A DNA stretch of 64,000 bases, from the NCBI GenBank assembly GCA_964548205.1, contig CAZJPJ010000004.1, positions 21,577 to 85,576 on the forward strand, written 5' to 3'. The position numbers and the translations under genes were made by a program. The notes under the pieces were generated by a model. The model was not told the origin of the DNA. It saw nothing but the letters and a program-made list of their open reading frames with translations, and did no database searches. The stretch comes from an uncultured Candidatus Saccharibacteria bacterium. Its GTDB lineage: Bacteria; Patescibacteriota; Minisyncoccia; Phycocordibacterales; WO2-35-19. Positions within the stretch are counted from its first letter, which is position 1. Each line of letters begins with the position of its first letter. Positions 20,970 to 62,300 of the stretch are shown here, piece by piece.

Positions 20970-21028
20970 CTGCCCTTCGCGGAGAGCGGCCGGCTAGCTG
21001 GTAGCTAGCCTGCCGCGCCGGCGCCCGG

Positions 21029-21641: not shown

Positions 21642-22024
21642 GATTTGTTGGTTTCTCCTGTTGTTGAGGTGACACCCAGCCCCCGAGGGCTGGGTGAGAA
21701 CGGTGGTGCTGTTCTTTTTTTAGAATAGCAAATATAAAAAATCCTGCAAGTATTAAAACAAAAAGTGTGGATAAGTAAGAAAATAAAAAAGTATAAAAAG
21801 TTTTAGGCCCGTGCGCTCCCTCTTAGTGGATTACGCACGGGCCTCTGTTTGGACGCGCCAGGGTAAAGATCTTGCGCAGGTGGCGAACCATCTCTGGTTC
21901 TTTCTGGGGAAGGTGCTTCGAGGGCTTACTTCCTAAATTTATACCACCTGCTTTTATTTAATAAAATAATAAAAATAATATAGAAAAAGAAAATTTTGTC
22001 AACTACAAAAGTGTATAAAATTTA

Positions 22025-22064
22025 CCCCTCCCCTGATCAAGGGGAGGGGGTTGGGGGTGGGGTT
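22025..22064. repeat. GC-rich palindromic repeat element, copy A (CCCCTCCCCTGATCAAGGGGAGGGG plus a G-tract), lying just 3' of the ClpC-like gene and probably acting as its terminator
   Basis: Perfect 9 bp arms around TGATCAA. A near-identical copy lies at 29741..29784. Confidence 0.7.
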
Positions 22065-22065
22065 C

Positions 22066-24486
22066 CTAAAGTTCTTCGACCTTCACCTCAATTTTCCCTC
22101 CACTTTTCACTTCCCCACTGATTATCTTCTTTGCCACAGCGTCCTCGACGATAGTTTTGACGGCTCTATTTATAGAGCGAGCTCCAAACTTCGGATCGGC
22201 CCCCTTTTCTACAAGATAGCGAACAAGTTCATCTGTTATGACTAATTCTATCTCTTTACTTACGAGTTGCTCTTTCAGTTTTTCTAGCTCGAGCCTAGCG
22301 ATAGTAGCGAGGTTCTCGTTACCAAGTGGCTCGAACACAACCAGTCCATCGAAGCGGTTTAGAAGCTCTGGTTTAAATATTTTTTGTTCCACAATTTTAT
22401 TTATTATTTCATCTTTTTCTTCTGCCAAATTTTTACCCTCACTCTCCGCTTTCCATATAAGGTCACTGCCTGCGTTTGAAGTAGCTATGATGATGAGGTT
22501 ACGACAATTTACCTTATTACCAGAAGCATCGCTAAAAAATCCTTCATCCAGTATTTGTAAGAATAGATCATGGACTTCCCTAGAAGCCTTTTCAAATTCA
22601 TCAAGGAGCAATACTCCATACGGGTTATCTTTGACTTTGCTCGAGAGTATCCCAGGTTTACCATCAGAAAAGTTCCCTATAAGACGAGAGAGTGCATCAA
22701 AACCACTATATTCGGACATGTCTATTCTTACCATCTTGTCTTCGCTCCCAAAATACACTAGAGCCAAAGTCTTTGCAGTCTCTGTCTTACCTACACCGGT
22801 TGGGCCAAAGAAAAGGAAGGAGCCTATCGGTCTATTTGGATTGCCGAGTCCTGACCTTGCTCTCCGTACCGCGCTCGACACTGTATCTACGGCAAATTTC
22901 TGACCGACTACCCTCTCCCCAAGCAAAGATTCTAGTCTATTTATCTTCTCCATCTCTTCTTCTCCGACTTTACCGATCTTTATACCAGTCTTTTCTGACA
23001 CATAAGCCACCACATCTTCTTCTTTCAAAATCTGGCCTTTCACAAGCTTTGTACTCAATACCTCATCGAGAAGATCTAGAGCTTTTTCTGGCATCTCACC
23101 GGTAGTGATATGACGCACAGCAGAGAGCACTATCTGCTTTATCGCTCCGAAGCTAACCAATATCTTCTTACCATCCTCTATTGATCTTACTTTTTCTATT
23201 ATTACAGGCAGCGAAGAATCTTCATGCACTTCAACCGGAAGGACTCTTTCAAATTTTTCTGAAAGTTCTGCACTTGTCTCCAAAAAGAAATGGAAATCAG
23301 CCGATGTAGAATGAGCAACAATGTTCAGTGAAGACGAATTGAGATACGGAGAAAGTAGTGACGCTACATTTACACCGCTCTGTTTGGCGCTGACCAAAAA
23401 AGATGGTAAGTCTCTGATATATAGGATTATATTACCTGCATTTGATGCTTGAGTTAGGAGTTTCAATATTTCAGATTCTATGTCAGCTTTATTCTTAAAG
23501 GTTGCTAAAAGCGCAGACCAATCCAACTCTATGATTTCCTTATGTTCGATATTAGGCAACGCAATCCCAAGCCTTATCTTGCGCAAAAGCCTAGCTACAA
23601 TATCTCTAGAGACATCCTCGCTATTGCTTACTATTACTGCATTGGCCTCCTCACTCCTTTCTAAAATACCTTCGAGGATAGAGACTTCGTGTTCTCTGTA
23701 CCCATTTTCAAGATTGATAAGTGACAAATCTATAGTATTTCCAAAACTTCTGCCATATTTACCAAGCTCAAATGAAATACCGTAGCTCCAAGATTTACCG
23801 ATAGAGGGGATACTACCGAGCTTCTCCCTACCCCAAAACCTTTCTTCCCGTCTCTCTCGTTCTATCGATTCCGCTTCCATCAGAGCTGCTCCAAGAAATT
23901 CTTTTTTTCCTACATTGTGAGTATTCAAAAACTGAGCAAAGACTTTATCCAATTCATATACCGCACTAAGATAGCTGACAAGATCTGATTGTTCGTTTTC
24001 TGTATTGACTGAACCAGAAATGATAGGGGTACGCGCTCCGTCGACAAAACCTTGCCATTCATCCTTTTCGACACCACTTCTTTCAAGCACTCTTTTGCCA
24101 GTCTTACTTTCAAATATGCCCCTCGTTATATCTATCTCACTTGTGTGGTAAAGGATCTCAGATAGTGCAAAGTCGATCCGTCTATTTTCTTTGAGGTTGC
24201 GTTCTACCACTCTCGAATATATCCCTTCACCTTTCATAGAATGGTAGAAAAATTCTATAGAAGCGAAAATCAGATAGAAAAATACAAACAAGAAAAACAA
24301 TGCGTCAGCAAAACTAAAATCTAGGGGCAATACATCTATAGATGCAAACGACAATATGAAGGAGAAAAGTGCCAAAGTAGCCGAGAGCTTCCTAAAAACA
24401 GCCCGCAAAAAACGTGGCAAAAACCTGTCTATAGTTAGGACCAAGGCATGAGGTCTGCTTATTTCCTTTATTTTACTGAAAGTCAT
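22066..24486 (-). CDS. Clp/Hsp100-family AAA+ ATPase, ClpC-like, with an N-terminal transmembrane region and a degenerate first AAA domain
   Basis: D2 is intact: FFGPTGVGKTETAKTLA (Walker A), VLLLDEFEKA (Walker B), IIIATSN, LLNRFD. In D1, Walker A and B are replaced (SNSEDVSR and ILYIRD). The N-terminal 90 aa are hydrophobic. Confidence 0.75.
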   Translation of the reverse strand: MTFSKIKEISRPHALVLTIDRFLPRFLRAVFRKLSATLALFSFILSFASIDVLPLDFSFADALFFLFVFFYLIFASIEFFYHSMKGEGIYSRVVERNLKENRRIDFALSEILYHTSEIDITRGIFESKTGKRVLERSGVEKDEWQGFVDGARTPIISGSVNTENEQSDLVSYLSAVYELDKVFAQFLNTHNVGKKEFLGAALMEAESIERERREERFWGREKLGSIPSIGKSWSYGISFELGKYGRSFGNTIDLSLINLENGYREHEVSILEGILERSEEANAVIVSNSEDVSRDIVARLLRKIRLGIALPNIEHKEIIELDWSALLATFKNKADIESEILKLLTQASNAGNIILYIRDLPSFLVSAKQSGVNVASLLSPYLNSSSLNIVAHSTSADFHFFLETSAELSEKFERVLPVEVHEDSSLPVIIEKVRSIEDGKKILVSFGAIKQIVLSAVRHITTGEMPEKALDLLDEVLSTKLVKGQILKEEDVVAYVSEKTGIKIGKVGEEEMEKINRLESLLGERVVGQKFAVDTVSSAVRRARSGLGNPNRPIGSFLFFGPTGVGKTETAKTLALVYFGSEDKMVRIDMSEYSGFDALSRLIGNFSDGKPGILSSKVKDNPYGVLLLDEFEKASREVHDLFLQILDEGFFSDASGNKVNCRNLIIIATSNAGSDLIWKAESEGKNLAEEKDEIINKIVEQKIFKPELLNRFDGLVVFEPLGNENLATIARLELEKLKEQLVSKEIELVITDELVRYLVEKGADPKFGARSINRAVKTIVEDAVAKKIISGEVKSGGKIEVKVEEL

Positions 24487-28237: not shown

Positions 28238-28272
28238 CCCCGACCGTCACAAGTCGGGGGTTGCTTTTTTAT
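28238..28272 (+). terminator. intrinsic terminator
   Basis: ccccgac-cgtcacaa-gtcgggg followed by ttgctttttta. Confidence 0.55.
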
Positions 28273-28280
28273 ACAGAGTG

Positions 28281-28289
28281 TGATATAAT
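28281..28289 (+). promoter_or_regulatory. extended -10 promoter element (TGaTATAAT)
   Basis: tgatataat lies 26 nt upstream of the ATG at 28315. Confidence 0.4.
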
Positions 28290-28314
28290 CAAAAATGGAA
28301 AGGAAACCTCAATC

Positions 28315-28869
28315 ATGAACCTGTGGAAACATTTTGCTGATTGGTGGCTTGCGCCAAAGAAGCAAGCTGCCAAGCTTCTTCCTGAGCTAATTGAGTTGCG
28401 CGAACAACTCAATAAAGCAATCAATCGCCCCCCCCTTGACGCAATCGTTTCGTTTTTTGATATCGTGTCGATGTGGCACGATCGCATCGATGAGGTGGAC
28501 AACCTCATCTCAAGCTTGGAGAAGGTCAACTATGGCCAACACACCAAGTTGATCCAAAATTTAATGGGACTAAGAAAACACTTTGAGGACGCTGGCCGGA
28601 GTAGGTACGGATGGAATAGGACCACAAGGGGCCAGACAGTCACCGAAGACACCGTCTTTCTGGGCAACATTTTCGGACTGTGGACTTTTCCAGTACGTCA
28701 CTGGAAATCAACCAGGAACCAAGCGCGGGACATCGGTACATTTGCGGGATTCACGGGAATGAGGGAAATGAACGCCTACGACGTAGTGTGTTGCCAGGCA
28801 ACCAGATTCATTACCCCTCACGCGATCGGTATCCGTAGAGCCATAAGCTGGCTCGAAAACAATCTGTAA
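28315..28869 (+). CDS. hypothetical protein with GC-elevated sequence. The start is taken at MNLWKHF because the -10 element lies inside the longer track ORF.
   Basis: 185 aa, about 50% GC by eye, no motifs recognised; GGAAAGG Shine-Dalgarno site. Confidence 0.4.
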   Translation: MNLWKHFADWWLAPKKQAAKLLPELIELREQLNKAINRPPLDAIVSFFDIVSMWHDRIDEVDNLISSLEKVNYGQHTKLIQNLMGLRKHFEDAGRSRYGWNRTTRGQTVTEDTVFLGNIFGLWTFPVRHWKSTRNQARDIGTFAGFTGMREMNAYDVVCCQATRFITPHAIGIRRAISWLENNL

Positions 28870-29234
28870 AACCGATTCCGCCCCACCTTGAGCAATGCCA
28901 ACCAGCAGAGCTCAAGGCGGGGCTTTTCGTATTATAAATTTTCCACAAAACAAATCTAAACACCGATCACGAAGTGCCACAAAGTATTCGTGTCCCCATT
29001 ATTTTGCTACGATCGTAGTAAAATAATGTAGCCAAGTGTAAAGAATTCAAGATGTTCAGATATCAAAGGCGCCCTTTGGGATGGTTTGTCTATATCTTTT
29101 TTTATAATAAAATTAATAAGGAGGTCCAACATGGACCATGGCTAAAAGGTTAAATCAAAAGGGGAATAACCCCCAACTTTGCCCCGCCACTCACTTGTAC
29201 GATGAGAGGCGGTTTTTGTATACAAAATCAGAAT

Positions 29235-29264
29235 TTGACAATATATAGGCGACTATGCTATAAT
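29235..29264 (+). promoter_or_regulatory. consensus sigma70-type promoter (TTGACA, 18-nt spacer, TATAAT)
   Basis: ttgaca-atatataggcgactatgc-tataat. Confidence 0.55.
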
Positions 29265-29283
29265 GCAGTTTAGGAGGCACACC

Positions 29284-29397
29284 ATGAACGATGATCCGTT
29301 TGTGATTGTGTTAGTTCTAGGAGGCTTCCTTTGTCTTATCGTCGCAAGACGACAAATAAAGGAAGTCAGAAAAATTTTTGGAGGAAAGAAAAAATGA
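29284..29397 (+). CDS. 37-aa single-TM small protein, translationally coupled (ATGA) to the downstream Flp-like gene
   Basis: AGGAGG, 6 nt, ATG. Product MNDDPFVIVLVLGGFLCLIVARRQIKEVRKIFGGKKK. Confidence 0.4.
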   Translation: MNDDPFVIVLVLGGFLCLIVARRQIKEVRKIFGGKKK

Positions 29398-29633
29398 GGA
29401 GAAAAAATGCTGCCCGGAGGGGTAGCAACTTGTTGGAGTACGCGGTGGTGGTGGGATTCGGAATTGTGGCCATCTATATGGCCTTCCGCGAGCCGATCAA
29501 GCTCGCAGTCCTAAACCTCATCAATGCGCGCGTAACTGCGTGCATTGCAAGCAACCCCACAGACAATACATGGCGGGAGCAATGCCACAAAGATGGCATG
29601 AATTGGAGGAGGATAATCGTAGACAGGTTGTAA
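29394..29633 (+). CDS. Flp/Fap-family pilin-like protein (type IVb / Tad pilin-like prepilin)
   Basis: MRRKNAARRG|SNLLEYAVVVGFGIVAIYMAF fits the Flp G-x4-EY processing motif and hydrophobic core; 79 aa. Confidence 0.55.
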   Translation: MRRKNAARRGSNLLEYAVVVGFGIVAIYMAFREPIKLAVLNLINARVTACIASNPTDNTWREQCHKDGMNWRRIIVDRL

Positions 29634-45462: not shown

Positions 45463-45511
45463 CGTCGGTGGTAGAGCTTGCCCCGCCACGGCGGGGTGAA
45501 GTCAATTACAA
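45463..45511 (+). repeat. tRNA-Tyr 5' fragment (positions 1-27) with a 25-nt GC hairpin inserted in the D-loop, immediately upstream of the GIY-YIG gene
   Basis: gcgtcggtggtagag [cttgccccgccacggcggggtgaag] tcaattacaa compared with the intact tRNA's gcgtcggtggtagagtggtcaattacaa. Confidence 0.65.
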
Positions 45512-45512
45512 T

Positions 45513-45755
45513 ATGTGGTATGTATATATTCTCAAAAGCTTGAAGGATGAAAAATACTATATAGGTTGTACAGATAATTTAGAGAGAAGAATTGATCAAC
45601 ACAACAGAGGAGAAAATTCATCGACTAGATTCCGGAGACCTTTTGAGTTAATCTATACAGAAACATACGCGAATAGCAGTATTGCTTATTCGAGAGAAAA
45701 GAAAATAAAAAGATACAAAGGTGGAAATACCTTTAGGAAATTGATAAGTAAATAA
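45513..45755 (+). CDS. GIY-YIG nuclease family protein (small, UPF0213/YhbQ-like)
   Basis: MWYVYILKSLKDEKYYIGCTDNLERRIDQHNRG, the GIY-YIG motif. The ATG at 45513 is preferred; the track ORF starts from an upstream GTG that lies inside the tRNA fragment. Confidence 0.7.
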   Translation: MWYVYILKSLKDEKYYIGCTDNLERRIDQHNRGENSSTRFRRPFELIYTETYANSSIAYSREKKIKRYKGGNTFRKLISK

Positions 45756-45756
45756 T

Positions 45757-45840
45757 GCGTCGGTGGTAGAGTGGTCAATTACAACAGACTGTAAATCTGT
45801 CGGCCTTAGGCCTACGCAGGTTCGAATCCTGCCCGGCGCA
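45757..45840 (+). tRNA. tRNA-Tyr (anticodon GTA), class II long variable arm
   Basis: GCGTCGGTGGTAGAGTGGTCAATTACAACAGACTGTAAATCTGTCGGCCTTAGGCCTACGCAGGTTCGAATCCTGCCCGGCGCA. Confidence 0.85.
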
Positions 45841-46037
45841 CAGCGCAAAACAAAACAAAAACAGGATAAATGCCTGTTTTTGTTTTCGTGCCTATGCACG
45901 AGGGAGGATTCGAAAGCCGGAGGGCACGGAGCGAAGCGAAGTCCGAACTTAGCAAAGTTCGGGCCCGAGGTGGGGTCGCGGAAAATTATTTTTGACGAAA
46001 AATAATTTATCTGTGACCGAATCCTGCCCGGCGCACA
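45823..46037 (+). mobile_element. att-like structure: a 20-nt direct repeat of the tRNA-Tyr 3' end (cgaatcctgcccggcgcaca) bounding a roughly 175 bp hairpin-rich segment; remnant of an element integrated at the tRNA 3' end
   Basis: Identical 20-mers at 45823..45842 and 46018..46037; internal palindromes (acaaaaacagg...cctgtttttgt and aaaattattttt-gacg-aaaaataatttt). Confidence 0.55.
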
Positions 46038-52980: not shown

Positions 52981-53296
52981 GTCCGCTCAGAGGGAATCGG
53001 TCACGAGTTCCTTCGCCAAGCTCAGGACTCTCGACCCCAGCTCGCCCGTCTCGCTTTGCTCGACATGGCTCCGCTTTTCGATTCCTCACGCAAGCAAAGC
53101 AGTTTGCTTGCTTTCGCGTCCAAACCGCTTCGCAACTTGTCCGCTCAGAGGGAATCGGTCACGAGTTCCTTCGCCAAGCTCAGGACTCTCGACCCCAGCT
53201 CGCCCGTCTCGCTTTGCTCGACATGGCTCCGCTTTTCGATTCCTCACGCAAGCAAAGCAGTTTGCTTGCTTTCGCGTCCAAACCGCTTCGCAACTT
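52981..53296. repeat. two tandem 158 bp repeat units, each beginning (in plus-strand view) with a 19-nt copy of the tRNA-Lys 3' end
   Basis: Units at 52981..53138 and 53139..53296 are essentially identical. Each starts gtccgctcagagggaatcg, the 3' end of tRNA-Lys. Each contains the hairpin gcaagcaaagcagtttgcttgc. Confidence 0.75.
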
Positions 53297-53297
53297 G

Positions 53298-53370
53298 TCC
53301 GCTCAGAGGGAATCGAACCCCCGACCATCTCCTTAAGAGGGAGCTGCTCTACCAGCTGAGCTATGAGCGG
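53298..53370 (-). tRNA. tRNA-Lys (anticodon CTT); the acceptor stem begins C1:G72
   Basis: CCGCTCATAGCTCAGCTGGTAGAGCAGCTCCCTCTTAAGGAGATGGTCGGGGGTTCGATTCCCTCTGAGCGGA. Confidence 0.75.
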
Positions 53371-53936: not shown

Positions 53937-54308
53937 GTGGATATGAGTATGAATATGGAATCAGCTTATGAGGCGGGAGAATTTGATGGGCATGCAAGTG
54001 AAGCCGTAGAAACTGAAGCACGGCAAGAATACCATGAAGGTCATTCTGAGTATGTAGTTTTTGAATCAGAGGAGAAAAAAGAAGAAGCAAAAAAACTGCT
54101 TGATGAGCACCACCAGACTGATGGCAGGCTGACTTATTTTCTTAGATACGAAGACAACGAAAACCAAAACTGCCTTCAAATAATATTTTCTAAAACATCA
54201 CAAGACCAATGGAGAGATCTAAAGGATTTTTTCAAAGAACACGGTCTCAGGATTGAAGACAAAGACATTCACACCGTGGACCCTAAAGGCAACGAGACAC
54301 ACCACTAA
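53937..54308 (+). CDS. hypothetical acidic protein (123 aa)
   Basis: GAGAGG Shine-Dalgarno site; His/Glu-rich N-terminus; followed by a 17 bp-stem terminator. Confidence 0.4.
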   Translation: MDMSMNMESAYEAGEFDGHASEAVETEARQEYHEGHSEYVVFESEEKKEEAKKLLDEHHQTDGRLTYFLRYEDNENQNCLQIIFSKTSQDQWRDLKDFFKEHGLRIEDKDIHTVDPKGNETHH

Positions 54309-54312
54309 ACAA

Positions 54313-54353
54313 GCCCACAAAAAAACACTCTTTCGGAGCGTTTTTTTGTGGGC
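54313..54353 (+). terminator. strong intrinsic terminator (17 bp stem with one mismatch)
   Basis: gcccacaaaaaaacactc-tttcg-gagcgtttttttgtgggc. Confidence 0.6.
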
Positions 54354-54444
54354 CATATTTTCATAAGCCGAATTCTGTTTTGATTGCAACAATTTATCTG
54401 GACTTAATATTACTATTAAGTTCTTGCGGCACTCCCCATGAGGT

Positions 54445-54800
54445 AATTTCGCAAAAGCTCACTATCTCACGGGGCACGGCCTTGCACAGAAGTAAGGATT
54501 TTGCCGTTTCAGCTTGGCATTGCTACCAAGACGTTCCGATCGCTTGGAACCCCTATTCTTTCGAAATCGGGCGTTTCTGTTCGCACCTCTTCCAATTTTG
54601 CCCACCGAAAGTGGTCGCAAAATTGAGAATCCGCCGAAGCTTTAGTGAAGGCGGAGACATTGTCTCAACTTTGTATTCACTTTCAGTGAACAAAACCAGA
54701 GACGGGTGTTACCCGCTACCCTGCTGCATATGAGGTGGCAAGATCTTGCGAGCTCCACCTCATATGCCTGTGTTCGGACTTTCCTCCACGTGAGATAACT
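54445..54800 (-). ncRNA. rnpB: RNase P RNA (bacterial type, reduced); antisense to track ORF 54380..54733
   Basis: The minus strand reads ...GGAGGAAAGUCCGAACACAGG... (P4 5' strand), ...CAGGGUAGCGGGUAACACCCG..., ...GAACAGAAACGCCCGAUU... (P4 3' strand-like). P1 pairing UAUCUCACGUGG/CCGUGAGAUAG spans about 54463..54797. The segment is GC-rich in an AT-rich context. Ends are approximate. Confidence 0.7.
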
Positions 54801-55041
54801 GCAAACTATCCTTCAACCGGGATTTTATATACCGTCTGCCCCAAGCAGTTTTAAGATACTTTTCTCTTTTTAGAGAATCTCTGCTACTTGAACAGGCTTC
54901 ATAATATACAAGTCTCCATGGCCCGCGGTTTTTTGTAGCAATAGACTTATTGTCGTTATGTTCTTTAAGTCTTCGCTTCAGATCAGAAGTATATCCGATA
55001 TAAAACTGCTTTGGGCCTTTGATTATGTATACGTAGTGCAT
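54760..55041 (-). CDS. GIY-YIG nuclease family protein (UPF0213/YhbQ-like), paralog 2; its 3' end overlaps the predicted 5' end of rnpB
   Basis: MHYVYIIKGPKQFYIGYTSDLKRRLKEHN. Confidence 0.65.
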   Translation of the reverse strand: MHYVYIIKGPKQFYIGYTSDLKRRLKEHNDNKSIATKNRGPWRLVYYEACSSSRDSLKREKYLKTAWGRRYIKSRLKDSLQLSHVEESPNTGI

Positions 55042-55177
55042 AATTTACAATTATCTCACGTGGCTGTTGCACGAAATATGGCCTGAAATATAGGTTATCA
55101 CACATTTCCCCAAAATTCAACATTTTGCTTGCATTTTCTATCATAATATGCTATAATAAAAGTAGGAGGTGGTCATA

Positions 55178-55579
55178 ATGAAGATCACATTATTGCTCGT
55201 TTTCACGCTGGTCGCGGTGACCAGCTCCACTTTGCTGGCCCAAGGCCGGCAGGCCGGCTCGGTGGCCATCGCCGAGCACATCAGTTCAAACCTTGTGCTC
55301 GACTCAGTGAAGTGCCTGGAGCGAGCAACAAATAACAATATTAGGGCTGGAGAGAAAAATCCGGCCGAAAAGGCATCCAAGTTTTGTCAAACCTCAGTCA
55401 ACGCTGAAGTTAAGAGGAGTACGGGGGTTGCCAACGAGGCCGCAGACGCCACAAAGGCATCGGCCCCTCGGGGAGTAGTTCTTCCCGGGGGAATAGGACT
55501 TGGTTGGGGGGGTTACTACGGGGGAGGAGGCTTCATCCTCCGCAGGCCGATCGGTCGGCGGCAGATAGTCCGGCGGTAA
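55178..55579 (+). CDS. secreted hypothetical protein with a Gly/aromatic-rich C-terminal tail (GGIGLGWGGYYGGGGFILRRPIGRRQIVRR); GC-elevated
   Basis: AGGAGGTG Shine-Dalgarno site, 6 nt, ATG; Sec signal MKITLLLVFTLVAVTSSTLLAQG. Confidence 0.5.
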   Translation: MKITLLLVFTLVAVTSSTLLAQGRQAGSVAIAEHISSNLVLDSVKCLERATNNNIRAGEKNPAEKASKFCQTSVNAEVKRSTGVANEAADATKASAPRGVVLPGGIGLGWGGYYGGGGFILRRPIGRRQIVRR

Positions 55580-55588
55580 GACCGCCAA

Positions 55589-55630
55589 TCCCGTCGAGAT
55601 GCACACAGCACCTCGACGGGATTTTTATTT
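55589..55630 (+). terminator. intrinsic terminator
   Basis: atcccgtcgag-atgcacacagcacc-tcgacgggat followed by ttttattt. Confidence 0.55.
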
Positions 55631-55639
55631 ACAAAAACC

Positions 55640-55668
55640 TTGCATTTTCCACCCTTTTGTGATATAAT
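55640..55668 (+). promoter_or_regulatory. sigma70-type promoter (TTGCAT, 17-nt spacer, TGtGATATAAT extended -10)
   Basis: ttgcat-tttccacccttttgtga-tataat. Confidence 0.5.
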
Positions 55669-55715
55669 AGAGGGTGGAAGTAGATCTTCTACAAATCTAT
55701 TTAGAGGCAACGAAA

Positions 55716-56852
55716 ATGACGGAAAAGAATGAAGAAAAGATCCAAGAAAAAGGGGTGGGTGGCCCCAACCCCCCACCGGAATACCAGTGGATAGTTACGG
55801 TCCCCCAAGAGTGGTTCAGACTGGTTCTTAGGGGAGAGGACCTTGACTCAATTATCCACGGAGCGCGTGGATACAGAGTCAACGAGGAATTGGAATTTGA
55901 AAAAATCCCACCGGGATTTGAAGACGCTTACGACCTATCACCTAGACACCTCTTCCGCCAAGTAACTGGGCGGGAATTCGTCGGGATTCCCAAGCTCAAG
56001 AGGACCGGTATATACGGAAAAAAATTCCGTTGGGCCGCGTTTTTTCCAAGAACCGAAGGAGGTGGTGAGAACGGTAAACCGGTATACACGCCGGGCTGGC
56101 ACGACCAAGAAATCGTGCGGGCATTTCCTCTCGTATCGAGTTACCCTCTAACCTTTACAAATATCGACGTACAAGGTCGAGAGGTGACAACTGGCGACCC
56201 GTCGATCGTCCAGATCGCGATGACGGTCATCATCCGAGTCAGGATGCTAAGGCCACGGATCGCACTGATGCAAAATACCGACTGGCTCGGAAACGGCGTG
56301 TCCCCCTATCTCCAAGGTCGCATTGGTGACTATATGAGGACTGGAGGAGATGACACAAATATTATGTCCTATGACCGTGTCATACGTCGTGATAGATTGA
56401 ACGGTAGAGGAAGTCGGTTTCGCAACACCTTTCTCGGCACGTTGATCAATGGCGGAAAGCAAGTCGAGCGAAGCAGTTTGAGACTCTCCTTACTTGCACA
56501 GTATGGAGTGGACCTCATCGACGTGCAAGTCGTCGATGTGCAAACGAACGAAGAGTTCGAGAAGAAGCTGAGAGCACTAGCCGACGCCGATATCGATGCC
56601 GCAATCATCGAGCGGCAGGCAAGAGCCGAAGCCCAGAAGCGAAAGCTTCAGGCTGAGGCCGAGGGAGAGTATATTCGCCAAACATCAGCCGCCATTCAGG
56701 ACAGACTCCGCCGGTTGATGGAAAGCATGGGAGGAGACGCGGCTAGCGTAAGGGCGATCGAATATGCCTATGCCCTGCGCGACTCCAAACTCACCACCCT
56801 TGCCGGGGCCGGCGTCAGCCTCGTCGTAGGCCCAGACGGCACCATCCGCTAG
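55716..56852 (+). CDS. SPFH/Band-7-domain protein with a roughly 160-aa N-terminal extension and no predicted TM; GC-elevated
   Basis: ...YGVDLIDVQVVDVQTNEEFEKKLRALADADIDAAIIERQARAEAQKRKLQAEAEGEY... then ...VRAIEYAYALRDSKLTTL...VVGPDG, which fits the SPFH core plus the coiled-coil pattern of HflK/C, stomatin and flotillin. Confidence 0.55.
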   Translation: MTEKNEEKIQEKGVGGPNPPPEYQWIVTVPQEWFRLVLRGEDLDSIIHGARGYRVNEELEFEKIPPGFEDAYDLSPRHLFRQVTGREFVGIPKLKRTGIYGKKFRWAAFFPRTEGGGENGKPVYTPGWHDQEIVRAFPLVSSYPLTFTNIDVQGREVTTGDPSIVQIAMTVIIRVRMLRPRIALMQNTDWLGNGVSPYLQGRIGDYMRTGGDDTNIMSYDRVIRRDRLNGRGSRFRNTFLGTLINGGKQVERSSLRLSLLAQYGVDLIDVQVVDVQTNEEFEKKLRALADADIDAAIIERQARAEAQKRKLQAEAEGEYIRQTSAAIQDRLRRLMESMGGDAASVRAIEYAYALRDSKLTTLAGAGVSLVVGPDGTIR

Positions 56853-56994
56853 ACCCAAGCCCTGTTTAGGGCAAACCAACCCCCAAATGCATCGCTTTCA
56901 AGGCATAGCGTGAGGGGGTTGCTTTTTTATACGAAATGTGCTATAATATAAATAGGTCTGTGTACAATAACAATTGCATAAGGAGACGAAGGAA

Positions 56995-58227
56995 ATGAAC
57001 GCAATAAATAGTGGAAATGGCCGCTTGATTAGCGGCCAGACGATGGCCCAGTCTTTCTGGGCCCAGTTCTGGGCCTGGATCAAGTATAGTTGGGCGACAA
57101 GTGGGTGGTGGAAAAAAATCACCCTCGTCCTGCGGGCAATCTGGGCACTCCTGGTCGCAGGAGTACGGTTTCGGATCTTATCAGCAGGGCTCGCCGGATT
57201 GGCCGCTTTGGCCATCATCCTCGGGGTAGCATACTGGTTCGTGATGGGTGGTTACAAGTGGTTATTTAGCTCCACTATGTGGATGCTGTTTGCCACTGCC
57301 ATCTTCATCGGCCTATGGTGGCACCTTCGGAAGTACAAGGATGAGGATTTCGTAAAAATTGCGGGGGGAAAGTTCGTAGCCAAACCCCTGCGGTCAGCTC
57401 CGTTATGGGCAATCGCTGTCATCTGGGCAATCTGGGTCGCCGTTCAGGCGATAATTCTGGGTTGGCAAGGTGTGGTCGCGATCTACAAGCTCGCCGCAGA
57501 CTGGTTCTTCAACTTTTCTGGGGGGCTCGCTCTCTGGAAAGTCGCTCTGGGTTTACTCCTGCTAGCCGGCATTGTGTGGGTAATAAGCATACTCGTCCGG
57601 TGGGCAAGAAAGTCTAGAGAGGAGAACGACAAAACCTTTGGACTCGGCTCGGCCCTCGTAGTCGGCATGGTGGCAGTAGCAATACTGAACACCATACTGT
57701 TTCTCGAAGCGTATCTATGGATCGCTTTCGCAGAGAACCACACGGCTGGGTTCCTGGGAACCAACCTCTCTCTCTGGCTTGCTGTAAGCGCATGGCTGGT
57801 CAGAGACAAGGAGGGCAACCGCCCCGCTTGGTCTGCCAATGCTTCAAATATCCTATTTGCTCTCGCTTTAATCGGCGTCAGCATAGCGGGATGGGAGGCA
57901 TTCCGGCAAATCGAGGAACCGATTACTTACGAGGCGGTTCCTGGAGGGGTACTGGCAAAGGTTCTTGCTCCAATCGACGATTGGAGTAAAAACCTATCCG
58001 TCCGAGGAAACAAGTTCAACCTTGAAACCGTCCCCGGACGGAAGTTCAAGGTGAAATTCCTCGGATACGAGGTTAAGGACGGGAGAAGGATTCCTTTGGT
58101 CAAAGTTTTCGTGGTCAACGACAATGACCACGATTTCGAGACTGATGGAGTGATTCAAGAAATACTTGTTCAATCACTCGATGGGAGACCGATGAGAGTT
58201 CCAGTCGAGATGATGTCGCGGCGATAA
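56995..58227 (+). CDS. Trp-rich polytopic membrane protein (about 8 TM) with a roughly 110-aa C-terminal soluble domain; GC-elevated; function unknown
   Basis: AAGGAGA Shine-Dalgarno site; TATAAT at 56943; TM helices rich in W (WAQFWAWIKYSW..., LWAIAVIWAIWVAV...). Confidence 0.45.
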   Translation: MNAINSGNGRLISGQTMAQSFWAQFWAWIKYSWATSGWWKKITLVLRAIWALLVAGVRFRILSAGLAGLAALAIILGVAYWFVMGGYKWLFSSTMWMLFATAIFIGLWWHLRKYKDEDFVKIAGGKFVAKPLRSAPLWAIAVIWAIWVAVQAIILGWQGVVAIYKLAADWFFNFSGGLALWKVALGLLLLAGIVWVISILVRWARKSREENDKTFGLGSALVVGMVAVAILNTILFLEAYLWIAFAENHTAGFLGTNLSLWLAVSAWLVRDKEGNRPAWSANASNILFALALIGVSIAGWEAFRQIEEPITYEAVPGGVLAKVLAPIDDWSKNLSVRGNKFNLETVPGRKFKVKFLGYEVKDGRRIPLVKVFVVNDNDHDFETDGVIQEILVQSLDGRPMRVPVEMMSRR

Positions 58228-58300
58228 ATTTCCACCCTTCTCCTTATGCACACCCCCGCTTGGTTTCGGCCATGCGGGGGTGATTTTTTATAAAGCTTTT

Positions 58301-58564
58301 TTACAACCCCAAAAGCCCAGAGTAAGTGATACCAAAAGTAGAGAGCACGAGGCGCAATATGCCATAGACGCTAAACATCACAAACATCCCCACAATTCCA
58401 TAGAACACTGTGCTCTTTTTTTTCTCCAAGTCTCCCCCGTCTGCCCCCCATATAAGCCTTACTACACCCCAGAAGAAGACTACAGTAGCTATAGCGAAGC
58501 CGAAGACTATCACTGGATTGATGATATAAGTGGCTATCTTACCGAGCAAAATTTTTATTGGCAT
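58301..58564 (-). CDS. small two-TM protein, paralog 1 of a VirB2/TrbC-like array (no signal peptide)
   Basis: ...VFGFAIATVVFFWGVVRLIWGADGGDLEKKKSTVFYGIVGMFVMFSVYGIL... Confidence 0.5.
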   Translation of the reverse strand: MPIKILLGKIATYIINPVIVFGFAIATVVFFWGVVRLIWGADGGDLEKKKSTVFYGIVGMFVMFSVYGILRLVLSTFGITYSGLLGL

Positions 58565-58639
58565 TGGCTAAATAATAGCACAACCCCGACACTATTTTGT
58601 GTGTCGGGGTTGTGCAAAAGACAATTATTTCTTTTCTTA

Positions 58640-59002
58640 TTACCCTTGTGGGACAAGATCAGTAGGACTGAAGCCAGGACCAGTACCAGTATCTATATCG
58701 AGAGAGCTACTTAGGAAGTTTACCAAGCCCCAGACAGCTGCCATGACGAAGAGGGCTACTACACCCCAGATCATAGTCTTCTTTGCCTTCTCCTTGTCGT
58801 GCTCACCACCAAAGATGTATAGAGCCAAACCCCAGAAGAAGAAGAGCATAGCAAGAGCAAATACTATAGGGATGAGGATGTTGATGATATCACCTACAGA
58901 TGATGCCAGAGTCTTTATGTTGTCGAGTTGCTGTGCTCCTGCTACCAACGGTAGAGAGAACATAGAAGCAACCAAAGCTATTTTCTTCATTTTTATAAAC
59001 AT
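58640..59002 (-). CDS. secreted two-TM small protein, paralog 2 (VirB2/TrbC pilin-like topology)
   Basis: Signal MKKIALVASMFSLPLVAGAQQ; ...IPIVFALAMLFFFWGLALYIFGGEHDKEKAKKTMIWGVVALFVMAAVWGLV. Confidence 0.55.
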   Translation of the reverse strand: MFIKMKKIALVASMFSLPLVAGAQQLDNIKTLASSVGDIINILIPIVFALAMLFFFWGLALYIFGGEHDKEKAKKTMIWGVVALFVMAAVWGLVNFLSSSLDIDTGTGPGFSPTDLVPQG

Positions 59003-59105
59003 TAATTATTAAACGACCGTTTTAATATATCACAATTATACCCAATTTGCAAAAACACGCGCAACTCTGTAATCCACAGCAGACATTTTTTGAATCAAAA
59101 ACTAA

Positions 59106-59546
59106 TTAAATATCGCCCAACAATAATGGCGTCTCTCCCCCACCACTTGAAGCACTTCCATCCAGATTTATATTTGGCACAGTTTGATAATTACCCACAT
59201 CTCTAATACCAAATTCTCGTCTCAAGAAAAATACCAGACCCCAAACTGAAGACATTACGAAGAGTGCTACAACTCCCCATACCATTATCCTCTTACCATC
59301 ATCTTTACCTTCACCTTCAGAGCGAATGTACTTTGCAACACCCCAGAAGAAGAAGAGCATAGCAGCCGCAAAAGCAAGGGGCACCAATATATTTGAAACT
59401 AGAGATAGAGCATTGGTAAAAAATCTATCCGTGCCGCCTAGAGGTTCTGAAGTCAACACCTGAGCATTGGCAACTGTAAAAGTCAGACAATACAGCGTTA
59501 TCAATAGAATCTTATTTACACTTTTCTTCATTTTGTTTTCAAACAA
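59106..59546 (-). CDS. secreted two-TM small protein, paralog 3
   Basis: Signal ...LTFTVANAQ; ...VPLAFAAAMLFFFWGVAKYIRSEGEGKDDGKRIMVWGVVALFVMSSVWGLVFF. Confidence 0.55.
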   Translation of the reverse strand: MFENKMKKSVNKILLITLYCLTFTVANAQVLTSEPLGGTDRFFTNALSLVSNILVPLAFAAAMLFFFWGVAKYIRSEGEGKDDGKRIMVWGVVALFVMSSVWGLVFFLRREFGIRDVGNYQTVPNINLDGSASSGGGETPLLLGDI

Positions 59547-59552
59547 TTTAAC

Positions 59553-59831
59553 TTATAAGCTATTGCCTTGGATACTGATCGTATCCTTTTGCGGCAATTG
59601 AAATTCTTTTTGTATAAACTCTATTATACCCCATATAGAGAAAACTACGAATATCCCTAGGAGTCCCCACATCATCACCCTCCTACCCTCTTCTGCTGCC
59701 CTATCTCCCCCAGCGTCTTTGCGGATATACTTGGCAATGCCCCAGAAAAAGTAAAGTAGGCACAAAGCAAAGGCAAGAGGCACCATAGTACCTGTTATGA
59801 TCGACGTTGCTCTTTGGACAAGTTCTACCAT
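59553..59831 (-). CDS. two-TM small protein, paralog 4 (start taken at MVELV so that it abuts paralog 5)
   Basis: ...MVPLAFALCLLYFFWGIAKYIRKDAGGDRAAEEGRRVMMWGLLGIFVVFSIWGII. Confidence 0.5.
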   Translation of the reverse strand: MVELVQRATSIITGTMVPLAFALCLLYFFWGIAKYIRKDAGGDRAAEEGRRVMMWGLLGIFVVFSIWGIIEFIQKEFQLPQKDTISIQGNSL

Positions 59832-59835
59832 ATTG

Positions 59836-60114
59836 TTATTTAATGAATATTTGAGGTATGCCCAGAGTATCACCAAAACCAAACTCCTTTCTTATAAATA
59901 TCAGAATACCCCATATAGAGAACATTATAAAGATACCGATAACTCCCCATATTATGATATTTTTGCTCTTGGCTAGCTCATTCTCATTGCCCGCACTCCT
60001 TATAAACCTTCCGACTCCAAAAACAAAAGATACAAAGGCTAGTGCTGCAAGGAAAGGTACCAATACCAAGGCCATATCTGTAAATTTTTCCAATACTTGT
60101 GTCAGATTGTCCAT
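59836..60114 (-). CDS. two-TM small protein, paralog 5
   Basis: ...LVPFLAALAFVSFVFGVGRFIRSAGNENELAKSKNIIIWGVIGIFIMFSIWGILIF. Confidence 0.5.
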   Translation of the reverse strand: MDNLTQVLEKFTDMALVLVPFLAALAFVSFVFGVGRFIRSAGNENELAKSKNIIIWGVIGIFIMFSIWGILIFIRKEFGFGDTLGIPQIFIK

Positions 60115-60134
60115 TTTGTATCTATATTTTCAAA

Positions 60135-60548
60135 TTAACCTCCAAGCTGTTTTACGGTGCCCCCTATGGCATTGGCGATGACCCAAGCCCCTAGCAATAT
60201 AGCGGCTCCCACCACTCCGTACAAAAGAGCCTGGTGAGCCTTGGCTATCTTGCTCTCATTTCCACCTGCGGTCACATACAAAAAGCCAGCGTAGATGATC
60301 ATAATAACTGCGATAACAGCCCCTATTGGCAATATGATCTCGTTGATTATGAGCCTAAGGAAACTATCTACATCTTTCACATCCCCTTTCAGAGGATTTT
60401 GGATGTCTATACTATAGCTAACAGGTGGCTCCGAGTTATTACCACTTATGTCTGCAAACAAAGCAAGGGGGGCTATCATGCCGATGATTATCATTATAGT
60501 CACTATAGCTATAAATATTTTTTTGTAAGTATCTTTTACCTTTAGCAT
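60135..60548 (-). CDS. secreted two-TM small protein, paralog 6; the closest match to the VirB2/TrbC pilin pattern
   Basis: Signal/anchor; ...ILPIGAVIAVIMIIYAGFLYVTAGGNESKIAKAHQALLYGVVGAAILLGAWVIANAIGG. Confidence 0.55.
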   Translation of the reverse strand: MLKVKDTYKKIFIAIVTIMIIIGMIAPLALFADISGNNSEPPVSYSIDIQNPLKGDVKDVDSFLRLIINEIILPIGAVIAVIMIIYAGFLYVTAGGNESKIAKAHQALLYGVVGAAILLGAWVIANAIGGTVKQLGG

Positions 60549-60549
60549 G

Positions 60550-60981
60550 TTATTTGTTTAGTTGTACAGCATCGTTTATATCTGGCCTAAAGATAGCTCG
60601 CGATATGGTGCCGACTATAAGCCAAGCTGCTAGCATGATAACAAACCCGATAAAAACTTTCTTGAACAACTCTTTGGCTTCAGAACGCCTATCAGAGACT
60701 CCAGTAGTCATAAGTATAAAACCAGCATAAGCAAAAGCCCCCGCCGCTATAGGTACTGATATTTTCACAAGGTATCCCAATATCTTGTTTACCAGAGTGA
60801 CAAGCTTCTCCAAACTGCATTCATCTCCCGGCAAGCCACTGCAGACTACAAAACCTCTGTTTTCATCCCTATCATTCTGAGCATTTGCGACTGTGGGTAA
60901 AAGGTTCAGTGCAAAAATAAACAGACACAGCAGAGCCATCAGACTTTTGAATTTATAACTTTGTACTTTCAAACTTTTCAC
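60550..60981 (-). CDS. secreted two-TM small protein, paralog 7
   Basis: Signal ...LLPTVANAQ; ...ISVPIAAGAFAYAGFILMTTGVSDRRSEAKELFKKVFIGFVIMLAAWLIVG. Confidence 0.55.
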   Translation of the reverse strand: MKSLKVQSYKFKSLMALLCLFIFALNLLPTVANAQNDRDENRGFVVCSGLPGDECSLEKLVTLVNKILGYLVKISVPIAAGAFAYAGFILMTTGVSDRRSEAKELFKKVFIGFVIMLAAWLIVGTISRAIFRPDINDAVQLNK

Positions 60982-61004
60982 TTTATTTTATGTTGTTTCG
61001 GTTA

Positions 61005-62300
61005 TCATTTACCCAAAAGCAGTACGTCGATTTCTCTGTTTGCTCTAGAAAGAGCGTCCCCAATTCTCGAACGACCGCTGGTTATCGACTCTACCATGGA
61101 CTTAAAGACTGCGTTTGTCTCTAGTGGTTCTGGATCGAGCCAACCTCTCGCCATGATAGCACTTTCATAAAAGATAACCTTATATGCATCCGTCTGCCTT
61201 TCTGCAAGCAAGTCTCGCCTTACCGGTGGAAGATTCATCATGGTACTAATAACCTCAGCGCTTTCTCCCAATGCTAAAGCGTTTGCTACAGTGAAAGCTG
61301 CGTTTGGATTTTTGGATGTTTTGGTTATTGCAAAACCATAAAAATCACCAAAAGTGACATTTTCACCATTTTCTCTAGGCACTGGTATCTTGGTTACATC
61401 GAAGTTTAGGTTTGGGTTCTTTATATTTATACTAGAAAGCTCACTTGCGGGACCGAAATACATAGCCAAGTCACCACCCAAGAAATATGTCAGGGAATCT
61501 GGCAATGACCTATTCCAAGAATAAGAACTTTTGGCTGGATTACCAAACTCTGTATAGAAGTTGAGAGCAGATTCTGCAGGCAATATAGGCTTGTTCGATG
61601 GGTTTAGAGTCCATGCACTTTTGGGCTCACTGCCTAGCCAATAGACTATAGGGGTACTGGCTTGCATGGCCAGAGTAGCGATTATGTCCTTTGCGTGGCG
61701 TATGTTTGAAAATTCCCCCATAGAGACAGCACTACGTTGGATATTTAGAGCCCCGTCCTTTATAGAAATCTGTGAAGAAAGACCATAAAACTGATCCCAA
61801 TATTTGGGTGGCAATGTCACCTGAACATCGTTAAAAATAGACCTGTTCCAATACATGACAAGCGGATCTACGACCACAGGTAGAGCCATAGCTCCATCTG
61901 GAAACATAAATATCTCAGCTCCTTCTATGAAAGCATCTTTGTATTGCCTCTGTGTAAACACGTCATAAGGTAGCGGCAATATTTTGTTTGAATGTTTGAG
62001 TAGTTTGGAGCTAGGGAGCAAAATAAGATCAGGGCCATCACCTGAAGCTAGTGCTTCAATAAAACTTTGGTCAAACTCATCGCTGGATCGATATTTGTAT
62101 TCGATCTTTATGTTTGATTTGCTGTTGGAAGAAAAGGGGCTCGACTCTACTATGGTGTACCAATCGCTCTGAGGTATGCTGCCCCAGACTGATACTACTA
62201 CCTCTTGGCCAGACGAACCTTTGTATGCAGAGAAAACAATAACCCCACCTATGATAAACAAACCAAAGACGGCCGTAAGGATGATCTGAAATTTTGACAT
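61005..62300 (-). CDS. extracellular solute-binding protein (ABC transporter SBP family 1-like), N-terminally anchored
   Basis: N-terminal TM then a roughly 400-aa alpha/beta domain with aromatic-rich ligand-pocket-like segments; weak family assignment. Confidence 0.5.
   Translation of the reverse strand: MSKFQIILTAVFGLFIIGGVIVFSAYKGSSGQEVVVSVWGSIPQSDWYTIVESSPFSSNSKSNIKIEYKYRSSDEFDQSFIEALASGDGPDLILLPSSKLLKHSNKILPLPYDVFTQRQYKDAFIEGAEIFMFPDGAMALPVVVDPLVMYWNRSIFNDVQVTLPPKYWDQFYGLSSQISIKDGALNIQRSAVSMGEFSNIRHAKDIIATLAMQASTPIVYWLGSEPKSAWTLNPSNKPILPAESALNFYTEFGNPAKSSYSWNRSLPDSLTYFLGGDLAMYFGPASELSSINIKNPNLNFDVTKIPVPRENGENVTFGDFYGFAITKTSKNPNAAFTVANALALGESAEVISTMMNLPPVRRDLLAERQTDAYKVIFYESAIMARGWLDPEPLETNAVFKSMVESITSGRSRIGDALSRANREIDVLLLGK

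Follow-up and report, generated by a model that had tools for sequence, protein, structure and literature searches.

Two adjacent genes in a 64,000-nucleotide stretch of DNA from an uncultured Candidatus Saccharibacteria bacterium (contig CAZJPJ010000004.1; the whole stretch is called the window, and positions are counted from its first letter) encode an SPFH/Band-7 protein that lacks a membrane anchor (gene 2) and a Trp-rich polytopic membrane protein (gene 3). The best explanation overall, which we hold to be probable, is that the two genes form an old, vertically inherited envelope module conserved in the lineage, a clade of the Saccharibacteria (TM7). A third gene (gene 1) lies directly upstream, and an array of VirB2-like pilin genes converges on the pair from downstream. 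A preliminary description of this DNA had joined genes 1-3 into one module. Such a conserved SPFH-partner pair is not described for the clade in the literature that we searched. The identity of the SPFH protein is ordinary; the new leads are the pairing, the co-variation of its anchor with the partner, and the maintained base composition at third codon positions. The parts of the pair are as follows.

55640-55668, plus strand: promoter of gene 2 (SPFH), TTGCAT-17-TGaTATAAT, that is TTGCATTTTC-N13-TATAAT, containing the second copy of a 10-bp repeat
55716..56852, plus strand: gene 2, SPFH/Band-7 protein without transmembrane (TM) anchor, 378 amino acids (P0001), identified with Pfam, AlphaFold2 (AF2) and Foldseek
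56880..56947, plus strand: SPFH-partner junction, a CCCCC...GGGGG hairpin whose T-run overlaps the -35 element of the partner promoter
56919-56947, plus strand: promoter of gene 3, TTGCTT-17-TGcTATAAT, with the -35 element at 56919-56924 and TGcTATAAT at 56939-56947
56995..58227, plus strand: gene 3, Trp-rich polytopic membrane protein, 410 amino acids (P0011), described from AF2, hydrophobicity and the family alignment
58253..58290, plus strand: terminator of gene 3, CCCCCGC...GCGGGGG followed by a T-run, read from the sequence

The SPFH-partner pair occupies a conserved chromosomal slot

Every contig that carries a relative of the SPFH gene shows the same gene order. An Aminotran_5-family aminotransferase gene, IF-2, (RbfA), tRNAs and the RNase P RNA precede the SPFH and membrane protein genes, and a convergent PF18895 pilin array, an SBP_bac_1 gene and gyrA come next. 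Two of these contigs bear the label uncultured Candidatus Saccharibacteria. The arrangement of rnpB upstream, then SPFH, partner, convergent pilins, SBP and gyrA is present in the related loci L001-L012. In the distant loci L015-L018, an SPFH-type gene and a pilin array again flank a member of the partner family. The synteny check that the preliminary description had proposed therefore finds the pair in the same slot in every related locus examined.

A metagenome scan with the SBP gene as a handle gave 80 loci, 73 with pilin arrays, of which 35 continue past the array for 3.5 kb or more. In 30 of these 35, at SBP identities down to ~42%, an SPFH gene lies in the convergent position. A partner-family gene is present in 24, or in 25 when L025 is included, where the adjacency filter passed over a partner open reading frame (ORF) that shares 4 bp with the last pilin gene. 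Neither gene is detectable beside the array in 4 of the 35. Protein identity to the relatives is 50-55% for SPFH, 52-57% for IF-2, 53-59% for the Aminotran_5-family protein, 55-62% for SBP and 72-81% for GyrA, so the SPFH gene has diverged to the same degree as the flanking core genes for IF-2, the aminotransferase and SBP.

Promoters and composition are native features of the pair

Each of the three genes has its own promoter and its own Shine-Dalgarno site (AGGAGG, AGAGG and AAGGAG for genes 1, 2 and 3), which the preliminary description had called strong. It had also called the promoters near-consensus. This holds for the -10 hexamers, all three of which are perfect and TG-extended, and not for the -35 elements, which match TTGACA at TTG alone (3/6). 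The motif TGNTATAAT occurs in 10 copies in the window, with 3.5 expected by chance. The corrected starts are ATG 55178 for gene 1 (133 amino acids), ATG 55716 for gene 2 (378 amino acids) and ATG 56995 for gene 3, the last of which shortens the previously stated 417 amino acids to 410.

The promoter of the SPFH gene is kept in L008, L001 and L015-L018, and upstream of SPFH in the relatives, TTGCATTT(T/A)...TGaTATAAT is conserved nearly base for base. In 8 of 10 related loci, the junction ahead of the partner reads GGGGTTGCTTTTT(T)ATA-N-TGnTATAAT, in which the T-run of the hairpin is at the same time the -35 element. The promoter and terminator motifs are thus kept nearly base for base despite partner proteins that are only 24-32% identical.

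The GC content of the region had been described as raised by eye, and computation bears this out, with all three genes outliers in the window for both GC and GC at third codon positions (GC3). Measured in 1-kb windows, the 55-58 kb interval has a GC of 0.49-0.54, compared with ~0.40 across most of the window. In 300-bp windows, it is 0.50-0.58 from ~55150 to 58150, and the sole dip is the promoter region at ~55600-55900. The GC of genes 1, 2 and 3 is 0.572, 0.530 and 0.526, and the other long ORFs of the window average 0.405 (standard deviation, sd, 0.041). Their GC3 is 0.635, 0.573 and 0.612 against 0.385 (sd 0.070) in the other long ORFs (z = 2.7-3.6). Taken from 31 confident window genes, the background GC3 is 0.383 (sd 0.054, maximum 0.534). 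Codons ending in C are raised in the three genes (C/(C+T) 0.65 vs 0.36 in the background), and so are those ending in G (G/(G+A) 0.53 vs 0.36).

The orthologous pairs share this signature in genomes with proteins only ~50% identical to those of the window. Among the relatives in which both the pair and its neighbours could be measured, the GC3 of SPFH and partner is 0.53 and 0.51 vs 0.35 in L010, 0.46 and 0.47 vs 0.38 in L005, and 0.47 and 0.55 vs 0.42 in L009. The margin of the pair over its neighbours is 0.08 to 0.18 in these three loci and lower in L001, L008 and L012, and no excess is seen in L002. At ~50% protein identity, synonymous sites are saturated and any memory of a donor is gone; therefore, the GC3 excess must be actively maintained. 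The forces behind it may include expression-linked codon bias, biased gene conversion or others. Rather than recent acquisition, strong constitutive expression or some other lasting local force may lie behind the conserved composition and promoters.

The preliminary description had suggested horizontal acquisition on the basis of composition and promoter style. If the whole three-gene block were a recently acquired foreign island with high GC and foreign-style promoters, its GC and GC3 would be expected to stand out in the window as they do, and a general compositional shift would raise both G- and C-ending codons. In addition, a GIY-YIG endonuclease gene and a tRNA cluster lie close by, and gene 1 is lineage-specific and looks inserted. 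However, the pair sits in the same chromosomal slot in all related loci, SPFH is as diverged as its core neighbours, and the promoters are kept across orthologous loci. The GC3 excess shared at saturated synonymous sites is maintained rather than donor-derived, and the GIY-YIG gene sits within rnpB and has an ordinary GC of 0.39. Because synteny is conserved, divergence equals that of the flanks and the promoters are conserved, genes 2 and 3 are not a recent import. Recent transfer of the whole block was rejected on these three grounds, and we consider such an island highly unlikely. Horizontal acquisition is plausible for gene 1 only. High GC3, a separate strong promoter for each gene and the terminator/promoter junction belong to the pair as conserved native traits, and raised GC with strong promoters is an unreliable sign of horizontal transfer in these genomes.

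A second patch of high GC3 (0.57 and 0.60) lies at 28261-29633 on the plus strand. Its genes are of unknown function and have no Pfam matches, and the same TGnTATAAT promoters occur at 28281, 29256, 29642 and 29833. High GC3 with a strong promoter is therefore not peculiar to the module studied here.

Gene 2 encodes an SPFH protein without a membrane anchor

Read from its N-terminus, the protein of gene 2 has a conserved region (residues 1-140), the SPFH domain, a long coiled-coil helix (279-337) and, at the C-terminus, a conserved strand motif. Its assignment to the SPFH family in the preliminary description is confirmed by Pfam and by structure comparison. Pfam Band_7 (PF01145) matches residues 156-321 of the 392-residue ORF with 32.7 bits against a cut-off of 23.6, and distant syntenic SPFH homologues reach 45-51 bits. 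The AF2 model has a predicted local distance difference test score (pLDDT) of ~65-80 for residues 140-360, and in a Foldseek search of the PDB it matches HflK/C, stomatin, flotillin and prohibitin best (probability 1.00, 250-300 aligned columns). Nine relatives (P0002-P0010) with 49-55% identity were found in a search of 5.8 billion clusters.

Two further features noted earlier, the missing N-terminal anchor and the N-terminal extension, are both present. Neither a TM segment nor a signal peptide was found in gene 2, whose maximum 19-residue Kyte-Doolittle hydrophobicity is 1.21. Therefore, the protein should be cytoplasmic. The extension amounts to ~140 conserved residues ahead of the Pfam-matched region and is kept across the family, and distant syntenic homologues carry it downstream of a TM anchor.

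Like the cage-forming scaffolds of HflK/C, stomatin, flotillin and prohibitin (PDB 7vhq, 9oh9, 9l3g, 9o9z), gene 2 combines an SPFH domain with a long coiled coil and a segment conserved at the C-terminus. Unlike them, it has no N-terminal TM segment or hairpin, and ~140 conserved residues stand ahead of its Pfam match. No FtsH-type client is encoded near gene 2. PADLOC gave no match for genes 1-3, and PHROG gave only a weak 'lipoprotein' match to the SPFH coiled coil. On these results, anti-phage defence or phage origin of genes 1-3 was rejected.

Gene 3 encodes a fast-evolving membrane partner

The description of gene 3 as a Trp-rich polytopic protein with a soluble C-terminal domain proved accurate. 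The protein contains 6.3% Trp and 7 hydrophobic segments. Its AF2 model, built from a 52-sequence alignment (mean pLDDT 79.4), shows an amphipathic Trp-rich helix and about 8-9 membrane helices. The TM helices, ~8 in number, span residues 21-306, and a C-terminal beta-sandwich of ~7 strands follows at residues 311-407 (nucleotides 57925-58215) with pLDDT ~90. By the positive-inside rule, the loop charges place residues 114-136, 206-216 and 269-277 inside and the C-terminal domain outside. The C-terminal tail is therefore predicted to face outward.

Relatives of gene 3 are rare. A word-indexed search found gene 3 alone and its profile version two proteins; an exhaustive HMMER scan was needed to find relatives, and it recovered only 64 among 1.84 billion representative proteins. 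In the family alignment, homology extends over the TM region and the C-terminal beta domain. Most of the 64 relatives match the last TM helices, a ~100-residue domain that we call CESG, and the C-terminal beta domain. The TM region is highly variable, with 0 to 8 segments across the family. The membrane proteins of 380-523 amino acids encoded downstream of SPFH in related loci are homologues of gene 3 at only 20-30% identity. Gene 3 is thus a fast-evolving, constant downstream neighbour of SPFH.

The preliminary description had offered two identities for gene 3, a VirB6/TrbL-like channel and an NfeD-like partner, and neither survives the searches. Gene 3 has no Pfam match at E <= 0.1, including TrbL/VirB6 (PF04610) and NfeD (PF01957). 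Profiles of the partner family found no VirB6/TrwI or NfeD chain among PDB sequences even at E <= 10. Foldseek with the gene 3 model found nothing in the PDB at E <= 0.001, and neither VirB6 nor NfeD is among the 50 matches listed. Membership of gene 3 in either family was rejected on these three comparisons. The best Foldseek matches of the beta domain are weak: cupin-, jelly-roll- and CBM-like folds.

A divergent VirB6/TrbL-type channel subunit of a pilus resembling a type IV secretion system (T4SS), with the SPFH protein incidental, would fit a polytopic, fast-evolving protein encoded beside VirB2-like pilins. VirB6 homologues are, moreover, scarce or unrecognisable in some classes of Patescibacteria (PMC12102498). 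Against this stand the missing TrbL/VirB6 matches in Pfam, in PDB-sequence profiles and among the listed Foldseek matches. With 0 to 8 segments, the TM region varies more than would be expected of a conserved channel core, and conservation in the family centres on the last TM helices and the extracytoplasmic domains. The VirB6-like protein of Southlakia epibionticum is far larger (a 3267-nt gene, ~1088 amino acids) and is encoded inside the T4SS cluster. We regard a channel role of this kind as very improbable.

SPFH genes are commonly found in operons with NfeD, a protein of TM helices and a C-terminal beta-barrel (PMC2636767, PMC4208085). Here, too, an SPFH gene is accompanied by a gene for a membrane protein in which TM helices are followed by a small C-terminal beta domain, and the pair could be a divergent stomatin-NfeD operon in which the beta domain of gene 3 binds SPFH. 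The pair has no homology to NfeD in Pfam or fold, however, and the listed Foldseek matches include no NfeD/1510-C structure. For the beta domain, a sandwich of ~7 strands, the weak best matches lie elsewhere. In addition, its predicted topology is opposite to that of the NfeD OB-fold: it is placed outside the cell, and in orthologues it follows a disulfide-bearing muramidase-like domain. With the beta domain outside, as predicted, and SPFH lacking an export signal, the two could not meet. Each gene also has a separate promoter. In stomatin operons, the usual order is nfeD then stomatin, and the order here is the opposite. A stomatin-NfeD operon is, in our judgement, hardly to be expected here.

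Most orthologues of gene 3 carry a putative Rpf-like domain

The CESG domain, present in most gene 3 orthologues, comprises ~100 residues with the pattern C-E-S-G ... G-K-[WY]-Q-I ... C-W-x-P-K, in which E, G and Q are invariant. It lies between the last TM helix and the beta-sandwich. The alignment of the domain with the catalytic domain of RpfB (sequence of PDB 4EMN) has an hhalign probability of 83.5% and E = 8.4e-6 over 68 columns and covers the catalytic Glu. Two conserved Cys flank the CESG domain as two do in RpfB; the second lies beyond the aligned columns, and its correspondence was read from the sequences. On this comparison, a muramidase-type domain like that of Rpf is moderately supported. 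In the family alignment, the gene 3 protein of the window shows a clean in-frame absence of the domain, as do P0016 and P0046.

The domain in gene 3 orthologues has the C-E-S/A-G-G, G-x-x-Q and W...C motifs. Set beside the VirB1-type and monoderm T4SS wall hydrolases (PrgK, TraG of pIP501) and Rpf (PDB 4EMN), they carry an RpfB-aligning domain that is membrane-anchored and encoded beside pilin genes. They differ from the wall hydrolases in having no CHAP or amidase domain. The orthologue domain falls below Pfam thresholds and its enzymatic role is a predicted one, and gene 3 of the window is without it.

The convergent pilin array

The array that converges on the pair is preceded, on its own strand, by two further genes.

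58301..60981, minus strand: seven VirB2-like pilin genes (PF18895), convergent on the pair, identified with Pfam and by one-to-one orthologues in related loci
61005-62300, minus strand: SBP_bac_1 gene, ahead of the pilin array on the same strand
62361 onwards, minus strand: gyrA, ahead of the SBP_bac_1 gene

The preliminary description had spoken of a pilin-like array, and Pfam confirms a PF18895 T4SS_pilin array. Four array proteins were scanned with PF18895, three of which score above the cut-off and one below; each of the seven is matched by orthologues in related arrays. The order of pilins, SBP gene and gyrA recurs in 73 metagenomic loci. The window genes that were scanned include no virB4. 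Patescibacterial VirB2-like pilin arrays hold 2-11 genes, and a virB1 homologue is mostly lacking (PMC12102498). The seven-gene array of the window belongs to this described class and differs in being preceded by an SBP gene and in adjoining gyrA. In Southlakia epibionticum, the pilin array is essential for epibiotic growth, in the one species tested (PMC10633639). Neither paper (PMC12102498, PMC10633639) mentions SPFH or polytopic-family neighbours of the arrays, and no paper joining 'Saccharibacteria' with 'SPFH' turned up in the literature searched.

In all loci, the SBP_bac_1 gene (60981-62300 region; e.g. L002 7171-8454) lies directly ahead of the seven pilin genes on the same strand, in some with a 4-bp overlap. 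It appears to be the first gene of the pilin operon.

Tethering of the SPFH protein and candidate functions of the pair

That the SPFH and membrane proteins form a pair, as first proposed, is supported in two ways. In all recovered loci the two genes are neighbours, and whether SPFH keeps its anchor goes along with how many TM segments the partner has. Most syntenic SPFH proteins carry an N-terminal TM segment; the anchor-less ones are that of the window, its close relatives, L018, L030 and L059. Partners of anchor-less SPFH proteins have a median of 7 hydrophobic segments (n=10) and those of anchored ones a median of 3 (n=28; Mann-Whitney p = 2e-5, uncorrected for phylogeny). TM-segment counts were used for this comparison; a hidden Markov model of the Trp-rich N-terminal module gave no matches, probably through a poorly chosen slice. 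Since anchor-less SPFH proteins are paired with TM-richer partners, the co-variation suggests that the enlarged Trp-rich TM domain of the partner tethers the SPFH scaffold. Anchor loss coupled to an enlarged partner would offer a natural experiment on SPFH membrane attachment.

A similar case is found in Bacillus subtilis, where YdjG/YdjH (SamG/SamH) recruit the cytosolic YdjI (SamI) to the membrane (PMC8581546; bioRxiv 10.64898/2026.02.06.704340). There, too, a cytosolic SPFH protein is encoded next to integral membrane proteins. The YdjI system has two small membrane proteins, whereas the partner here is a single large polytopic protein with an extracytoplasmic domain. Moreover, the pair has no PspA gene, gene 2 matches generic Band_7 only, and the partner has no Pfam homology. 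The logic proposed for the window, a scaffold tethered by its partner, would be the same.

A mechanism can be put forward from these features. The SPFH protein would oligomerise on the cytoplasmic side of the membrane. Its distant syntenic homologues keep an N-terminal anchor, which it has lost, and it may instead be held there by the enlarged Trp-rich TM domain of the partner. Together, the two proteins might organise a membrane patch with an outward wall-interacting domain, which in most orthologues would be a disulfide-bearing, muramidase-type Rpf-like domain plus the beta-sandwich and here the beta-sandwich alone. The patch may then serve the assembly or the wall passage of VirB2-like pilin filaments. 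This last step is the weakest, and it is suggested by the persistent place of the pair beside the SBP-pilin operon. In its fullest form, the proposal would make the pair a dedicated accessory platform of the Saccharibacteria VirB2-like pilus, in which the partner would tether a cytoplasmic SPFH cage, and its outward-facing Rpf-like muramidase and beta-sandwich would open the wall and guide pilin export. We think this form unlikely. If true, the platform would supply the 'missing VirB1' function remarked on for patescibacterial T4SS and would be the first case of a secretion or pilus machine that incorporates an SPFH microdomain scaffold. The Patescibacteria are marked by their VirB2-like pilin arrays, a hallmark of the group; the assembly factors of these arrays are largely unknown, and the wall hydrolase is unassigned in most genomes. 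The pair yields two candidates for pilus work, an SPFH scaffold and a membrane protein with a predicted outward wall-active domain.

Several points weigh against parts of this picture. The pair is convergent with the pilin operon and is not co-transcribed with it. The unrelated neighbours rnpB, the tRNAs, IF-2 and gyrA are equally syntenic here, and adjacency by itself is therefore weak evidence of function. In Southlakia epibionticum ML1, the only genetically studied Saccharibacterium, the sole annotated SPFH protein is a canonical slipin whose gene is distant from the T4SS/pilin cluster. One or a few evolutionary events probably lie behind the co-variation of anchor and TM count, and residues 1-140 of the gene 2 model are of low confidence. 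As for the Rpf-like domain, which the window's own protein lacks, its Pfam matches are sub-threshold (Transglycosylas, E = 0.058; SLT, E = 0.016), the CESG consensus has no match in Pfam or PDB sequences, and the whole-protein family profiles match no PDB sequence. Ribosomal-protein genes, which could serve as a reference for high expression, are absent from the window, and expression-linked codon bias is a candidate cause of the GC3 excess.

Some of these points would also suit a pair with duties of its own. It could be a housekeeping module of wall and membrane, in which an SPFH scaffold regulates or corrals a membrane-anchored, Rpf-like muralytic protein, for instance in growth, division or the control of envelope stress, and the pilin adjacency is inherited synteny with no link in function. 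The general synteny of the region is high, with conserved neighbours on both sides, and the pair is transcribed towards the array from its own promoters. The 4 of 35 arrays with neither gene detectably adjacent fit as well, and so does Southlakia, whose pilin array lies within the T4SS cluster without such an SPFH protein. Elsewhere, Rpf-type and SPFH proteins serve wall turnover and membrane quality control (PMC2636767, PMC8581546). On the other side, an SPFH gene stands beside the array in 30 of 35 loci, down to ~42% SBP identity, and such persistence suggests more than drift. A VirB1-type wall hydrolase is mostly unidentified for patescibacterial pili (PMC12102498), a gap that the partner family could fill. 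We see housekeeping of this kind as a genuine but tentative possibility. The envelope module inherited with its chromosomal neighbourhood, our preferred explanation, is persistently associated with the pilin operon, solely by synteny, and a function with the array is putative.

Gene 1 lies on a lineage-specific insert

The grouping of three genes into one module does not hold, since gene 1 has no homologue in related loci and lies on an insert specific to the lineage of the window. The features concerned are these.

55129-55157, plus strand: promoter of gene 1, TTGCAT-17-TGcTATAAT, read from the sequence
55129..55138, plus strand: copy 1 of a 10-bp direct repeat, TTGCATTTTC, ancestrally the -35 region of the SPFH promoter and today that of gene 1
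55139..55649, plus strand: lineage-specific insert of 511 bp (one repeat copy counted), GC 0.54, delimited by colinearity with relatives
55178..55579, plus strand: gene 1, an ORFan of 133 amino acids, described from composition and hydrophobicity
55590..55629, plus strand: intrinsic hairpin terminator behind gene 1, with CCCGTCGAG...CTCGACGGG ahead of a T-run, read from the sequence

Gene 1 has a signal-peptide-like segment at residues 3-21, two Cys and a C-terminus rich in Gly, aromatic residues and Arg (GGIGLGWGGYYGGGGFILRRPIGRRQIVRR). It gave no tblastn match in any related locus and no match in Pfam, NCBIfam, PHROGs or PADLOC. It forms a singleton cluster in a 15-billion-protein collection, and metagenome peptide-pattern, phage and plasmid scans found no relative. 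Gene 1 is a Gly-rich ORFan, predicted to be secreted and unrelated to the conserved module. As an ORFan on an insert, it stands outside that module.

The 10-bp sequence TTGCATTTTC occurs twice in the window (55129-55138 and 55640-55649), with 0 copies expected. The 511-bp insert contains a TGcTATAAT -10 element, the AGGAGG Shine-Dalgarno site, gene 1 and its terminator. When the insert is taken out, the window becomes colinear with the spacer between rnpB and SPFH in the relatives, where 60-230 bp separate the end of rnpB from the start of SPFH. Likewise, the sequence upstream of the first TTGCATTTTC joined to that downstream of the second is colinear with the single SPFH promoter of the relatives. 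In its simplest reading, this pattern points to an insertion into the SPFH promoter that duplicated 10 bp of the -35 region, such that gene 1 and SPFH would both keep a complete promoter. Gene 1 has the marks of a recent insertion: it is absent from relatives, flanked by a 10-bp direct repeat, and has a GC of 0.57 and a GC3 of 0.64.

Neighbouring features

The RNase P RNA gene upstream (54351-55083, minus strand) appears to hold a complete 93-residue GIY-YIG endonuclease ORF (54760-55041) in its P3 stem-loop. A 24-nt inverted repeat (54786-54809 / 55040-55063) brackets this ORF where the relatives have the P3 hairpin. The conserved GGAGGAAAGTCCGAACAC comes directly afterwards and encodes the last residues of the ORF. 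The P1 pairing of rnpB is a perfect 10 bp (54351-54360 with 55074-55083). Rfam recognises only the 3' part of the window's rnpB, at 50 bits, compared with 80-116 bits in the relatives. A second small GIY-YIG ORF (45468-45755, plus strand) ends one base ahead of tRNA-Tyr (45757-45841, plus strand). In the window, both GIY-YIG genes therefore lie against or within structured-RNA genes.

Between the tRNA cluster and rnpB, a 123-residue acidic ORF (53937-54308, plus strand) has no family match and no homologue in related loci. Further upstream, between tRNA-Cys and tRNA-Lys, positions 52981-53315 form a perfect tandem repeat (158 bp x 2.1 copies, 100% identity, GC ~0.55). Each 158-bp unit holds the 3' end of tRNA-Lys (GATTCCCTCTGAGCGGAC), and the tandem resembles repeated att-like duplications of a tRNA 3' end or, alternatively, an assembly artefact. 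Between the Dus and ClpB-like genes, a 1.5-kb segment (20581-22066, GC ~0.48) contains no ORF above 80 amino acids and nothing above the Rfam gathering threshold.

The otherwise syntenic region has variable slots in the relatives (L005 3033-3788, L005 11221-11880 and L008 14788-15423). Between rbfA and the tRNAs they contain a gene for a LAGLIDADG endonuclease, and between SBP and gyrA one for a Y1 transposase; the window lacks both.

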